64,000 nucleotides of DNA from a virus, in the IMG/VR virus record IMGVR_UViG_3300025030_000039, positions 252,878 to 316,877 of that record, one strand, 5' to 3'. Under the pieces are notes generated by a model. It worked only from the letters and a program-made list of their open reading frames with translations. It made no database searches and was not told where the DNA came from. The position numbers were made by a program, and so were the translations under genes. Positions 34,352-38,042 of this stretch are shown in pieces (within the stretch, counting starts at the first letter, position 1; the number at the start of each line of letters is the position of its first letter).

Positions 34352-35458
34352 TTAAAAATTATTTGTAATATAAGTTACATTATGAGCTTCAATATGTTTA
34401 GGTATATCAATACCTCTAAAAAGTTTGTTAATTACTTTTTCAGGGACCATTTCTTCTCTAGATAAATTTTGATCTAAAACTTTATTGAATGTAGTATTAA
34501 TATAAATGATATTAATATAAGCATTATATAATGTAAATAAAGATATTAAACTTTCTCGTGTTAATTTAGAAGTATTTGTTGCATTCCATATAAATGATTT
34601 ACCTTCTCTTAAATATCCTTTAGCAATTTCTTTAGCTGCTTGTATTACATGACCTTGTGGCTTATCAGGCTTTATTTTTAATTTAATTCTTATTTCATCT
34701 AAACTTATAACAGGTATATCTTTTAAATGAGTTTTAATATAAGTATCTTTACCACTTCCAGGTAAGCCACTCATTAAATAAACTTTAGATTTAGTATCAT
34801 TAAATGCTTCATCTGTATGATAATAAGTTTTTTTAACAATATAATTAAATTTAGTATATTCATTTTTAAATTGATATGAATTATAATAACATCCTAATTC
34901 TTCTGCATATAATCCAAACCAATTAATCTTTTCAATCATACTTTCAGTATCTGATGCAATTCTTCCCAAAGTATCATATATAGCAAGTTTATGTAATAAA
35001 AACAAATTACAATCTAAACTCATTTTAATTATATCATACTCTTGATCTTTATTTGTTTTATCTATAATCCAAGGTGGTTCACCGTGATAAAGAATAAGAT
35101 TTGCTATTTGTAATTTATCTTCAAATGTTATTATATTCTTCTGTTCAATTTTATCTAAAAGTTCTAGCGCAATATGATAACCTATTCTACTATGTCCGTG
35201 ACTTCTAATATGTCCATTTTCTTCTTTACTACAATATGGTTTTCCGATATCATGTAAAGTTATTGCATATCTTAATATTTTTTGTTGTTGTTCTGTAAAT
35301 AATATAGATTCTTTTTCAAATTCATCTAAAACCATTCTGACATGCGTTAATACATCACCCTCCGCATGATATTCTTTATCTTGTTCGCAATGTTTCATAT
35401 CATGAAAGTATGGTATAATTTCAGGTAATATTTTTTGTATATAAGTTAAAAAATCCAT
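34352..35458 (-). CDS. HD-Pnk-like bifunctional polynucleotide end-healing enzyme (N-terminal HD phosphohydrolase plus C-terminal P-loop 5'-OH kinase)
   Basis: H..HD motifs (HAEGDVLTHV, LHDIGKPY) and Walker A LMSGLPGSGKDT; architecture like Runella slithyformis HD-Pnk. Confidence 0.6.
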   Translation of the reverse strand: MDFLTYIQKILPEIIPYFHDMKHCEQDKEYHAEGDVLTHVRMVLDEFEKESILFTEQQQKILRYAITLHDIGKPYCSKEENGHIRSHGHSRIGYHIALELLDKIEQKNIITFEDKLQIANLILYHGEPPWIIDKTNKDQEYDIIKMSLDCNLFLLHKLAIYDTLGRIASDTESMIEKINWFGLYAEELGCYYNSYQFKNEYTKFNYIVKKTYYHTDEAFNDTKSKVYLMSGLPGSGKDTYIKTHLKDIPVISLDEIRIKLKIKPDKPQGHVIQAAKEIAKGYLREGKSFIWNATNTSKLTRESLISLFTLYNAYINIIYINTTFNKVLDQNLSREEMVPEKVINKLFRGIDIPKHIEAHNVTYITNNF

Positions 35459-35460
35459 TT

Positions 35461-36555
35461 TTATTTTTTCATTTCATTATATAAAGTTGCTCTTTTCCAG
35501 TTTTTTGTCCAATGTTCATCTGTTTGGACATGACCTTTTCTAACCCATTTAAATATAGAATTATAAAACATATCATTTGGAAATTCATCAGCAATTCTTG
35601 TTACTATTCCTTCTTTAGGAGATATAAAAAATTCTGAATCACTTAATGTAGAATATGTTGAAACTAATTCTTCTATTTTATTATAAATAAAAGTTTCATT
35701 TACATTAAAATTTTTATCGCTTTTAAATAAAACAGGTACAGTTGGTAAATCTAACATATTTGCATAAAATTCAACTTCTTCCCATGATAACCAAAAGTCT
35801 CTACTCATATCTCTTATACCAAAAACATAAAAATGACTATCTAATTTAGAATATTCTATGCTATGAATTCCATACATATTTTCACCACATATTTCTAATT
35901 CTCCTAAGTCATGTCTAATCATATTCCATAATGGAGATAACCAACTATCCCATCCATTTTGTGATGGTGATATTCTTGATCTACCAAATACTCCAAAACG
36001 AGAAATACTTGTATTAGAACCATCTAATTTTTCAGTCATAATAATTTCACCTTTGCATACTTTATTTATATTTTTAGCAATTCTATCATCACTTGTTGTT
36101 CCTGGCGAATTTAAAACATGATATGTTCTTGGATATTTTTCAACAATCATATTTCTATCTTTTTCAAATAAATGTAAAACATTTCCTTGCTTTAACATTT
36201 TCTGAACATTTTCTTGATTAAAATGATAACCTTTTAATCGTTTACCATTTTTTAAAATTGGATTACCCCATTTATCATAATCTTTAACAAACTCATTTAA
36301 TGATAAATTATGAGGATATATTTGTATTAAATTTGCCTTTTCTCTTAATTCTGAAGTTGATATAATTGTTGTTTCAGCATCTATATGATGTTTAGCGCAT
36401 AATGATACACCATTATTTAAATAATATCCACCATCTAAAAATAAATTTCTATCTATTATATGATGTGCATCGATTGTAGGTTCATTACATATAACGCATT
36501 TATAATTATCTCGTTTAAATACTTGAGTCTTAAATTCTTCTCTACTTAATAACAT
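35461..36555 (-). CDS. RNA ligase-like nucleotidyltransferase (KxDG motif EKLDGSN) with N-terminal HNH/Zn-finger motif
   Basis: CVICNE...AHHIID...CAKHH then MTEKLDGSNTSI (Rnl2-type motif I); adjacent to the Pnk. Confidence 0.5.
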   Translation of the reverse strand: MLLSREEFKTQVFKRDNYKCVICNEPTIDAHHIIDRNLFLDGGYYLNNGVSLCAKHHIDAETTIISTSELREKANLIQIYPHNLSLNEFVKDYDKWGNPILKNGKRLKGYHFNQENVQKMLKQGNVLHLFEKDRNMIVEKYPRTYHVLNSPGTTSDDRIAKNINKVCKGEIIMTEKLDGSNTSISRFGVFGRSRISPSQNGWDSWLSPLWNMIRHDLGELEICGENMYGIHSIEYSKLDSHFYVFGIRDMSRDFWLSWEEVEFYANMLDLPTVPVLFKSDKNFNVNETFIYNKIEELVSTYSTLSDSEFFISPKEGIVTRIADEFPNDMFYNSIFKWVRKGHVQTDEHWTKNWKRATLYNEMKK

Positions 36556-36557
36556 AA

Positions 36558-38042
36558 TTATCTATGGATTTTTTCACATGCGTCATTACCATCTATAAGA
36601 TCTATTTCATCATCATTCCTTTTAAATCCTATACTTGTACTTACATTGTTATTCATTTTATGACTCATTTTGGTATGTTTCTTTATTTTTTCAATAGTAT
36701 CAATTTCAGCAACAATTTCACTCATTAACCACTTTTCATTCAAAACTATTTTTAAAGAATCCAATTTCATTTTTAACATATTTATACTATTATAAATATG
36801 AGCTCCGGTAACTTTTGATTCAAAATATTTATTAATTATTTTATCATTTACAAATATTTTTGTAGTATCTTCTTTATCAATATTAAAATTATATTTAAGA
36901 GATTTTAATATAATATTTTTAATATTATCTTTAGTAATCGAATCGAATAATAAAACTTTATCAAATCTTCCAGGTCTCTGAGCAGCTAAATCTAAAAAGC
37001 TTGCAGAGTTAGTTGCACATAAAAATCCTACTCCTTTACTTATCTTATTAGTTCCATCTAAAATATCTAAAAATAAACCTAATTTTTCAGAATAAGATCC
37101 ATTATCTCTAGATCCTAAACTTAAATCAATATCATCTGATATTATAATTGAAGGCTTTAATATCTCAGCAAGTTCAACCTTTTCTTTAAAAAATTTATCA
37201 ATAGAAGTTTTAATAATTGTAACTCCTAATTTATTTAATTCATTTGATAATACTAATGTTGATTCAGTTTTACCAGTACCTGGATTACCTACCATTAAAT
37301 ATCTTAAAAAGACTTCTTTTTCTTTAAATATATCATAAAATAACGATACATTATCCATAATATCTTTTGGTAAATAAATATCATCAAAACTTCTTTCTTC
37401 TAATTTATTAATCTTCCAATCAAATTTATTATTAGACATTTCAATAAATTTACCTTTAATATCACTTTCTTGTAAAGCAAGTTCAAATAAATTTGAATAA
37501 ATGCGTTCATCAATAAAATTAGTAACTTCTCTACTATACATTCGTATTAAATATACCATTTCACCAGAATCTATAAATTTATCAAATGCTAATAATAAGG
37601 TTAAATCTTTATGTTTAAATGTAATGTGCGTAGGATTGTTAAGACTTTCGCCTAATGTCACATTATTTTGAAATCTACCATTAAACATAAATGAAATATC
37701 ATTAATATCATAAAGAGTTTGTTTGTCTTTATTTTGATATATAATATTAAAAAAATCTGAAAATATTTTAAATACTGGATATGAAAATCTTTGTCCAAAA
37801 TCAAAATATGTTTTATAACTCAATGTATTAATTCCATCTCCACGTTCTTGACCACTATTAAAGGCATTACTTCCAATATCTGTTACAGTTTTTACTATTT
37901 CTTTAGATACTTTTTCCATATTTTTTTCATTTATTATTAAATAATATTTTTCATTTACTTTTCTTTTACTATAAATTTCAGAAGCAGCTTTATTTAATCG
38001 AGTAATAAAATCTCCATAAGCACTATTTTTATCAAGATTCAT
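36558..38042 (-). CDS. AAA+ ATPase
   Basis: Walker A VGNPGTGKT, Walker B IIISDDID, arginine-finger region AAQRPGRFD. Confidence 0.65.
   Translation of the reverse strand: MNLDKNSAYGDFITRLNKAASEIYSKRKVNEKYYLIINEKNMEKVSKEIVKTVTDIGSNAFNSGQERGDGINTLSYKTYFDFGQRFSYPVFKIFSDFFNIIYQNKDKQTLYDINDISFMFNGRFQNNVTLGESLNNPTHITFKHKDLTLLLAFDKFIDSGEMVYLIRMYSREVTNFIDERIYSNLFELALQESDIKGKFIEMSNNKFDWKINKLEERSFDDIYLPKDIMDNVSLFYDIFKEKEVFLRYLMVGNPGTGKTESTLVLSNELNKLGVTIIKTSIDKFFKEKVELAEILKPSIIISDDIDLSLGSRDNGSYSEKLGLFLDILDGTNKISKGVGFLCATNSASFLDLAAQRPGRFDKVLLFDSITKDNIKNIILKSLKYNFNIDKEDTTKIFVNDKIINKYFESKVTGAHIYNSINMLKMKLDSLKIVLNEKWLMSEIVAEIDTIEKIKKHTKMSHKMNNNVSTSIGFKRNDDEIDLIDGNDACEKIHR

Follow-up and report, generated by a model that had tools for sequence, protein, structure and literature searches.

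The stretch of DNA analyzed here, which we refer to as the window, comprises 64,000 nucleotides (nt) of IMG/VR virus record IMGVR_UViG_3300025030_000039 (positions 252,878 to 316,877). It is 100% identical to GenBank LR756500.1, an unannotated 'uncultured phage' record of 462,018 bp whose end-to-start junction falls inside the window at 9851/9852, and its DNA is ~24% G+C. Our subject is a pair of adjacent genes, one for HNH-Rnl, a predicted ATP-dependent RNA ligase with an N-terminal HNH module, and one for HD-Pnk, a predicted phosphoesterase-kinase. A first-pass annotation of the window had grouped this pair with an adjacent AAA+ ATPase gene as a three-gene cassette for RNA end-healing and sealing. 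The three open reading frames (ORFs) lie where that annotation had placed them, at 34352-35458 (HD-Pnk), 35461-36555 (HNH-Rnl) and 36558-38042 (AAA), all on the minus strand, with 2 nt between neighbors; their products are 368, 364 and 494 amino acids (aa) long, respectively.

Conservation was assessed in four alignments: A1 (24 HNH-Rnl sequences), A2 (12 HD-Pnk homologs from fetched loci), A3 (the AAA family of the window gene) and A5 (stand-alone HNH genes). Structure models were made with AlphaFold2 (AF2) and compared with known structures by Foldseek. The three genes and their domains are as follows.

34352..35458, minus strand: HD-Pnk, 368 aa; Pfam HD and AAA_33 domains, full-length match to phrog_6931
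34961..35383, minus strand: HD phosphoesterase domain, residues ~26-166; invariant residues in A2
34379..34789, minus strand: Pnk-type kinase domain, residues ~224-360; motifs in A2, alignment with Pnkp
35461..36555, minus strand: HNH-Rnl, predicted ATP-dependent RNA ligase with N-terminal HNH, 364 aa; PF09414, phrog_24030, AF2 model and Foldseek
36370..36543, minus strand: HNH (beta-beta-alpha-metal) module with CCCH zinc site, residues ~5-62; A1, A5 and PHROG HNH families
36151..36369, minus strand: linker module between HNH and ligase, residues ~63-135, with YDKWGNP motif; A1
35500..36144, minus strand: ligase nucleotidyltransferase domain, residues ~138-352; motifs in A1
36558..38042, minus strand: Bcs1/YjoB-like classic AAA ATPase, 494 aa; PF00004, motifs and Foldseek

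Domains and catalytic residues of HNH-Rnl and HD-Pnk

Pfam matches of the three proteins to RNA_ligase (PF09414), HD (PF01966) and AAA (PF00004) were all well above chance. HNH-Rnl scored 98.5 bits against PF09414 (E=6e-28), and its residues 2-352 aligned with phrog_24030 'RNA ligase' at E=1.4e-82. The EKLDGSN (KxDG) sequence pointed out in the first-pass annotation is present as K176-L-D-G-S-N181, and K176, D178, G179 and N181 of this motif I are invariant in A1. Ligase motifs III, IV and V are also all present, as are Ia and IIIa, and the residues invariant in A1 include R192/S193 (Ia), E225 (III), F245 (IIIa), E315/G316/V318 (IV) and K336/V338/R339 (V), motifs Ia to V having been assigned by pattern rather than by structural superposition. 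A1 further displays a KYPRTxH...DDR segment upstream and an HVxTDxHW segment at the C-terminus, and in some homologs the linker module is partly deleted.

Sequence and profile searches of the PDB with HNH-Rnl returned no ligase, indicating that the clade lacks a solved structure, and the ligase was therefore classified by way of its structure model. The AF2 model has a predicted local distance difference test (pLDDT) score of 89.5, and the sole stretch below 50 is residues 134-138. Foldseek matches of this model in the PDB were headed by RNA ligases, including NgrRnl (6vt4, 1.7e-8), archaeal Rnl3, T4 Rnl2 (2hvr, 1.8e-6), fungal Trl1 and REL1. Ranks 1-32 were all RNA ligases save for an Aquifex structure (3qwu) deposited as a 'putative DNA ligase', DNA ligases appeared only from 3.6e-4 or worse, and the 50 matches listed included no capping enzyme. 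With RNA ligases ranking first, the possibility raised at the outset that the KxDG protein is instead a capping enzyme or a DNA ligase was not borne out.

Within the PF09414 (Rnl2/Rnl5-like) superfamily, HNH-Rnl is neither a canonical Rnl2 nor a canonical Rnl5. NgrRnl (an Rnl5) and T4 Rnl2 are the best structural matches to its nucleotidyltransferase domain and have motifs I to V in common with it. However, the C-terminal all-helical domain that T4 Rnl2 requires for nick sealing is missing from the window ligase, which ends ~25 residues past motif V without an extra C-terminal domain, and the conserved HVxTDxHW tail sets the window ligase apart from both NgrRnl and T4 Rnl2. The N-terminal OB-like domain of Rnl5 proteins (NgrRnl and DraRnl) is likewise missing, and the HNH and linker modules stand in its place. 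HNH-Rnl also lacks the OB domain of DNA ligases.

The HNH module has the standard arrangement of residues (C20-x2-C23, D29-A-H31-H32, N48 and C53-x2-H56-H57), with a CCCH zinc site. C20, C23, H31, H32 and N48 are invariant in A1, C53 and H57 nearly so, and A5 has C20, C23, D29, H31, H32, N48, C53, H57 and E61 as invariant positions. The HNH segment matched PHROG HNH families down to E=2e-7 and the HNH region of IscB at E=2e-4. Although the window protein itself had no Pfam HNH match at E<=0.01, HNH-Rnl homologs exceed the threshold of PF01844 (28.1 vs 21.4 bits). The N-terminal HNH/zinc-finger motif described in the first-pass annotation is thus well founded, since A1 and A5 both conserve the triad (H31/H32, N48 and H57) and the Cys/His ligands (C20, C23, C53 and H56).

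The same annotation regarded the fusion of HNH to the ligase as unusual, and this view does not hold. A database search with HNH-Rnl yielded 4,224 homologs, and 112 of the best 120 combine the CxxC...HH motif with the ligase domain; the other eight are mostly ligase-domain-only proteins of ~220-250 aa. The PHROG family phrog_24030 is matched over its full length, and full-length HNH-Rnl proteins are encoded by cultured jumbo phages (Salicola SCTP-2, Ralstonia RsoM2USA, Caulobacter CcrBL9 and CcrSC, Acinetobacter ME3 and Halogranum HGTV-1). HNH-Rnl2 fusions with the same architecture, an N-terminal HNH and a PF09414 domain, have been reported for jumbo phages (Burroughs and Aravind 2016, as cited in Iyer et al. 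2021, PMC7824862). The window ligase differs from these in being paired with HD-Pnk.

HD-Pnk consists of an HD phosphoesterase and a P-loop kinase, as the first-pass annotation had read it, and both halves had Pfam matches: PF01966 at 25.1 bits (cut-off 22) for the HD half and AAA_33 (PF13671) at 58 bits (E=1.7e-15) for the kinase half. Among PDB entries, the HD half matched the HD domain of CCA-adding enzymes, and the kinase half matched PSTK (1.6e-6) and the kinase domain of Clostridium thermocellum Pnkp (4gp6, 3.7e-5) by phmmer; the kinase half also matched phrog_505 'polynucleotide kinase' at 1.4e-12. The HD metal ligands H39, H69-D70, H89, H125 and D162 are invariant in A2, as are H31 and K73 of the same domain. 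In the kinase, the P-loop G231-x4-G236-K237 is invariant and D238 nearly so, the residue following the P-loop Lys being Asp rather than Ser/Thr as a trait of the family. S252-x-D254 (with the catalytic Asp), R257, N292/T294, R301 and the lid residue R334 are also invariant, and D254 and R257 line up with the catalytic SSDFCR segment of the C. thermocellum kinase domain. Since the catalytic Asp and Arg and the lid Arg334 are kept throughout A2, the concern that the kinase might lack a Pnk-type lid does not apply. The two-domain architecture is common, with 373 cluster representatives at E<=1e-30, nearly all of them 340-400 aa long and matched end to end. In the cultured-phage collection, at least 80% coverage of the HD-Pnk query was found only in LR756500.1, the window's own record.

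Linkage of the ligase, HNH and HD-Pnk modules

Gene neighborhoods were compared by searching the flanks of 80 cellular and 80 viral ligase loci (8 kb and 10 kb, respectively), 79 viral AAA-family loci and 25 viral HD-Pnk loci with profiles of the window proteins; loci are referred to by L numbers. In every close relative (59-75% identity to the window ligase), the ligase gene is followed by HD-Pnk on the same strand within 2.5 kb. These relatives are L088, L089, L090/L091, L006/L007, L008 (the contig of L095 and L256) and L166 (the contig of L257). The pair recurs in 9 of the 80 cellular loci, which belong to unrelated phyla (Cellvibrionaceae, Undibacterium, Bacilli, and Saprospiraceae and other Bacteroidota), and HD-Pnk is the only recurrent neighbor of the ligase in the cellular set. 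The ligase domain of this same type lies within 4.5 kb in 15 of the 16 viral loci that have a full-length HD-Pnk, upstream of it in 14. The pairing, like each of the two gene types, has already been described. Neither Tpt1 nor HIT (MTase-HIT) was found in the window or beside five bacterial ligase/HD-Pnk pairs.

The HNH module follows the pair even where it is not fused to the ligase. It is present, fused or separate, in 9 of the 16 viral loci with a full HD-Pnk, and in six viral loci (L258, L259, L260, L262, L263 and L264) it is encoded on its own, by a gene of 100-115 aa that stands between HD-Pnk and a ligase gene lacking HNH. The Undibacterium locus L085 likewise has a separate HNH gene in this position. 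Because HNH is linked to the ligase and HD-Pnk whether fused or split, and because its catalytic residues are intact, these comparisons argue that it is a third working module of the system rather than a passenger.

Variants of this arrangement were seen in several Bacteroidota loci (L058, L061, L063, L064 and L078, from Saprospiraceae, Lewinellaceae and others), in which a 300-aa HNH protein is followed by a 220-aa ligase-only protein and then by an overlapping HD-Pnk gene. The C-terminal half of the 300-aa protein (~170 aa) has no assignment, and HNH proteins of 280-295 aa in L072 and L081 have a weak RNA_ligase match in their C-terminal half. The layout suggests that the HNH and ligase-only genes are tandem ligase paralogs, one of them possibly inactive.

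A different kind of interruption affects the ligase gene of L257 (5342-7985, the contig of L166), whose product is 47-64% identical to that of the window and is broken directly after motif I. The N-terminal piece runs on as ...KLDGEN|CLDADTLI and the C-terminal piece starts ...ILVHN|SSLS, and by their sequence these junctions resemble those of a split intein in two halves. Between the two pieces, in a 'fractured gene' layout, lies a free-standing ORF for a DUF7487/Vsr-like endonuclease. A group I intron was considered as the cause of the split; Rfam finds none there, and the junctions look split-intein-like instead. The window contains a related element at 39206-39448 (minus strand), an 80-aa ORF between the PARP gene and an 84-aa ORF, with weak Vsr/DUF559-like Pfam matches. 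It shares homology with part of one endonuclease, which interrupts the ligase gene in L257/L166 and comes after the ligase in L006, and it probably represents what is left of a homing endonuclease.

Proposed function in RNA repair

We consider it probable (about 0.65) that HNH-Rnl and HD-Pnk form a two-gene, three-module cassette for healing and sealing RNA ends within an auxiliary island of the 462-kb phage. We infer the enzymatic steps from the established chemistry of the protein families. The HD domain would strip 2',3'-cyclic, 3'- or 2'-phosphates to leave a 3'-OH, and the P-loop kinase of HD-Pnk would place a phosphate on the 5'-OH. HNH, which would generate 5'-PO4/3'-OH products, would probably trim or re-cut damaged termini that cannot be healed. 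The ligase would then self-adenylylate at Lys176, pass the AMP to the 5'-PO4 and seal the break. RNA is more likely than DNA to be the substrate because of the fold of the ligase and its membership in PF09414. The likely purpose would be to mend tRNA or other RNA that host ribotoxins have cut in the course of infection.

Phage RNA repair counters host defenses that cut tRNA or rRNA, and T4 Pnkp/Rnl1 is, to our knowledge, the only phage RNA-repair pathway understood in mechanism. The window pair follows the same logic as T4 Pnkp and Rnl1, in which a kinase and a phosphoesterase heal the ends and an ATP-dependent ligase seals them, and its kinase belongs to the same P-loop Pnk family. By this analogy, the pair could plausibly repair tRNAs that host anticodon nucleases have cut, and the cassette would then act in counter-defense. 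The two systems differ in that the window phosphatase is of the HD rather than the HAD/DxD type, the ligase belongs to PF09414 (Rnl2/Rnl5-like) rather than to the Rnl1 family PF09511, and the window system carries the extra HNH module and has no known cognate host nuclease.

The closest described counterpart is the Runella slithyformis cluster, in which the ligase ORF lies immediately upstream of HD-Pnk and overlaps its start (PMC6097658). Going by the published description, Runella HD-Pnk has the same N-terminal HD phosphoesterase and C-terminal P-loop 5'-OH kinase, and the gene order is also the same, with an ATP-dependent ligase gene directly upstream on the same strand (the spacer in the window is 2 nt). 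The window system differs by the N-terminal HNH fused to the ligase, by being carried by a phage and not a bacterium, and by having neither Tpt1 nor MTase-HIT nearby.

Several points weigh against the cassette being an RNA-repair system. The Runella ligase self-adenylylates and yet sealed no standard 3'-OH/5'-PO4 substrate tested, RNA or DNA (PMC6097658), and Runella HD-Pnk, to go by the title of Munir and Shuman (2017) as cited in the same paper, heals DNA as well as RNA ends. We found no biochemically characterized HNH-Rnl member in the literature. Most HNH-Rnl genes are solitary, given that a full HD-Pnk is nearby in only 9 of the 80 cellular loci and 2 of the 80 viral loci at ~40% identity. 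Finally, no host nuclease, tRNA gene or Rfam RNA was found within the window.

What HNH contributes is the more tentative part of the proposal. It is possible, though we would not call it probable, that HNH is an integral nuclease that trims RNA ends to 5'-PO4/3'-OH products in a heal, trim and seal pathway. If so, trimming would permit the repair of damaged, shortened or chemically blocked RNA ends, which simple healing and sealing could not fix, and the need for such a nuclease could explain the failure of the Runella-type ligase on clean substrates. We know of no RNA-repair HNH of this end-trimming kind that has been demonstrated.

An alternative role for HNH is that of an offensive or selfish DNA endonuclease, directed against host DNA or the DNA of superinfecting phages or engaged in homing, and unrelated to ligation. 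An offensive DNA nuclease is what has been suggested for the jumbo-phage HNH-Rnl2 proteins (PMC7824862), and homing endonucleases do visit the ligase gene, as seen where an endonuclease ORF splits the L257/L166 gene at motif I. However, HNH occupies the same N-terminal fusion position in 112 of the top 120 homologs, and where it is unfused it has been kept between the ligase and HD-Pnk in several lineages with its catalytic and zinc-binding residues invariant. A fixed fusion site and a retained unfused gene are the pattern of an obligate subunit and not of a mobile passenger, and we therefore regard the offensive or selfish role as unlikely; the linkage data point instead to a role within repair.

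A second alternative is that the cassette heals 3'-phosphate/5'-OH breaks made in DNA by host nucleases and seals them, HNH serving as the nuclease for the DNA ends. DNA is the target of most HNH domains, and the two Runella results are compatible with this reading, in that HD-Pnk is described as a DNA/RNA end-healing enzyme in the literature cited by PMC6097658 and the ligase next to it did not seal any RNA or DNA substrate tried there (PMC6097658). Nevertheless, the ligase domain of the window protein falls in PF09414, its fold matches RNA ligases (1e-8 to 1e-6) before DNA ligases (3.6e-4 or worse), and it is without the OB domain that DNA ligases have. Repair of DNA is thus quite unlikely.

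HNH-Rnl and HD-Pnk are widespread: ligase homologs number in the thousands and HD-Pnk clusters in the hundreds, in phages and in scattered bacteria and archaea. The window locus is a clean and intact example from a huge phage, of a kind to be expected in the auxiliary island of a jumbo phage. Of most use is the finding that the three modules, ligase, HNH and HD-Pnk, stay linked, which points to a testable role for the nuclease.

The AAA ATPase, the auxiliary island and other features of the window

The third gene of the cassette as first proposed encodes a classic AAA ATPase (PF00004, 47.5 bits, E=3e-12) from a family of 440-500-aa proteins found on large phage contigs. Its Walker A GxPGTGKTE (K258/T259), Walker B D303/D304, sensor-1 N345 and RPGRFD R356/R359 are invariant in A3, in which the N-terminal ~135 residues also form a conserved domain and no aromatic pore loop is conserved. 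The best Foldseek matches of its AF2 model (pLDDT 76) were Bcs1 (9gs2, 1.8e-14) and Bacillus subtilis YjoB (7w46, 2.2e-12) over ~400 columns, and the match of the N-terminal domain to the Bcs1 alpha/beta domain is read from the length of the Foldseek alignment alone. Bcs1 and YjoB are protein-remodeling AAA ATPases. The window protein resembles them in its top fold matches and its classic RPGRFD signature; it differs in being only 13-17% identical, phage-encoded and without a transmembrane anchor.

Were the AAA ATPase to work with HD-Pnk and HNH-Rnl, it might, for example, remodel ribonucleoproteins or ribosomes to expose broken RNA. Its gene lies 2 nt from the start of the ligase gene on the same strand, and relatives of it occur within 10 kb of the ligase/HD-Pnk set in L094, L203 (the contig of L259) and L229/L230 (the contigs of L264 and L263). 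Those are the only such cases, however. The AAA gene is absent from the flanks of all 160 ligase loci (80 viral and 80 cellular) and from the vicinity of the closest relatives of the cassette (59-75% identity), which were fetched separately; most AAA-family loci are without ligase and HD-Pnk. In addition, the Bcs1/YjoB-like fold acts on proteins, and the conserved aromatic pore loop is lacking. A three-gene system is accordingly very unlikely. What stands of the cassette as first described is the HD-Pnk/ligase pair, with its motifs, fold and synteny, and we conclude that the third protein, a Bcs1/YjoB-like remodeler of proteins, neighbors the pair in the same gene run without being a conserved member of the cassette. 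The few genomes in which it lies near the ligase and HD-Pnk may reflect shared placement in auxiliary islands, and it may have a loose functional tie to the pair. For both the AAA and MVP families, scans of viral contigs with the single proteins gave no matches, and alignment queries were required.

Upstream of the AAA gene the run continues to a PARP gene, and a gene for a major vault protein (MVP) homolog lies on the other side of the pair.

38045..38941, minus strand: R2K-clade ATP-grasp protein, 298 aa, directly upstream of the AAA gene; PF18299, PF14243, phrog_7313 (7e-48)
39448..40722, minus strand: PARP catalytic-domain protein, 424 aa, at the head of the packed gene run; PF00644 (E=1.6e-21), phrog_23333
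30755..33238, minus strand: full-length MVP homolog, 827 aa; MVP shoulder, vault repeat and Band-7 domains

From PARP (40722) to HD-Pnk (34352), the genes lie on one strand and overlap or are 1-5 nt apart, in the order PARP, endonuclease fragment, 84-aa ORF, R2K ATP-grasp, AAA, HNH-Rnl and HD-Pnk. A scan for promoters and terminators in this 24% GC DNA gave only chance-level matches, and PADLOC returned no meaningful defense-system match. The genes around the cassette also include those for Macro, sigma factor, SLOG/DprA-like, CoaB-like, NMNAT-like transferase, PhoH, PIN, ADP-ribosylglycohydrolase (ARH), ClpP, NAPRTase, deoxyribosyltransferase-like, Nudix, radical SAM and metallophosphoesterase proteins. 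The cassette is thus enclosed by a large NAD+/ADP-ribose/RNA auxiliary island at 28780-29559 and 44701-58366 (minus strand), to which the Macro, NMNAT-like, PhoH, PIN, ADP-ribosylglycohydrolase, ClpP, NAPRTase, deoxyribosyltransferase-like, metallophosphoesterase and Nudix genes belong. Counter-defense islands with NAD+/ADP-ribose and RNA-repair adaptations have been described in jumbo phages (PMC7824862), and the surroundings of the cassette fit that description because Macro, PARP, ADP-ribosylglycohydrolase, Nudix, NAPRTase, NMNAT-like, PIN and PhoH genes are nearby. The first-pass annotation had singled out the position of the pair next to MVP and PARP as unusual. Both genes are indeed present (30755-33238 and 39448-40722), but their linkage to the pair is not conserved; they are part of the larger auxiliary island rather than conserved partners.

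The entire run from PARP to HD-Pnk (40722-34352) might also be imagined as one system acting on ADP-ribosylated or damaged components of translation. Its single strand and its spacers of 1-5 nt or overlaps would suit such a system, as would the Macro, ARH and Nudix genes nearby. Of the 80 viral ligase loci, eight have an R2K homolog no more than 10 kb from the ligase (six of them within 3 kb), as against 1 of the 79 AAA loci, and L180 and L182 have PARP homologs close to the AAA gene. The full set, however, occurs in no other locus examined, the pairwise links other than that of the ligase with HD-Pnk are weak, and the closest relatives of the cassette have other neighbors, all of which makes a whole-run system highly improbable.

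The loci with R2K near the ligase are L122, L124, L129, L131, L151, L157, L158 and L164, and in L164 the R2K homolog (E=4e-105) comes straight after the ligase; R2K thus recurs loosely near HNH-Rnl genes. Close homologs of the PARP (E=1e-97 to 1e-102) are found in L180 (12666-13958) and L182 (18676-19962), 1.4 kb and 7.5 kb downstream of the AAA-family gene, respectively, which hints at a loose AAA-PARP link.

A vault-like particle built from MVP, PARP, a TROVE protein or ATPase and a small RNA was considered and set aside: the window has no TROVE protein and no Rfam or tRNA match, and the neighbors of MVP in two other contigs are unrelated. An MVP search gave 6,374 matches at E<=0.001, the best 120 being 51-56% identical when the window's own record is excepted. 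Some of the contigs that carry MVP homologs are 130-530 kb long, and the two with unrelated neighbors are among these. Phage-encoded MVP looks widespread, and we found little on phage MVP in the literature searched. In the window, MVP is flanked by a SLOG/DprA-like protein of 181 aa with a GGAKGAD motif (30210-30755, minus strand; phrog_768) and by a stand-alone CoaB-like homolog of phosphopantothenate-cysteine ligase (33262-33927, minus strand), which is below the NCBIfam cut-offs.

Within the island, in the region 48717-51979 (minus strand), the PhoH ORF has a weak intein-splicing signal at residues 139-175, and upstream of it are a 430-aa ORF without assignment and a PIN-domain ORF. The region may be an intein-interrupted or fractured PIN-PhoH gene.

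Features of the window apart from the island include a tandem repeat at 9702-9850, which consists of 8.3 copies of the 18-bp unit TGTACCTCTAGTAAAGTT at 99% identity and stops one base before the end-to-start junction of LR756500.1. A 1.7-kb query across the junction had 10 matching places in LR756500.1. The repeat may belong to a genome terminus or to an origin, or it may be an artefact of assembly. The co-oriented plus-strand genes between 10000 and 25000 show strong swings in GC skew, from ~+0.5 (10-12.5 kb) to -0.3 to -0.67 (15-21 kb) and then +0.4 to +0.76 (21-25 kb). The ORFs at 15-21 kb look real, and their coding strand is C-rich, unlike the rest of the window. Stop-codon recoding was considered as the cause of the short ORFs at 1-22 kb, and no signal of it was found there. 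At 23297-24928 (plus strand), two adjoining leucine-rich-repeat proteins are encoded by 69-bp tandem repeats; leucine-rich-repeat proteins are uncommon in phages. At 41166-42018 (minus strand) are three tandem paralogous genes for proteins of 93-95 aa, which recur with a period of 281 bp and have conserved Cys-rich C-terminal motifs.

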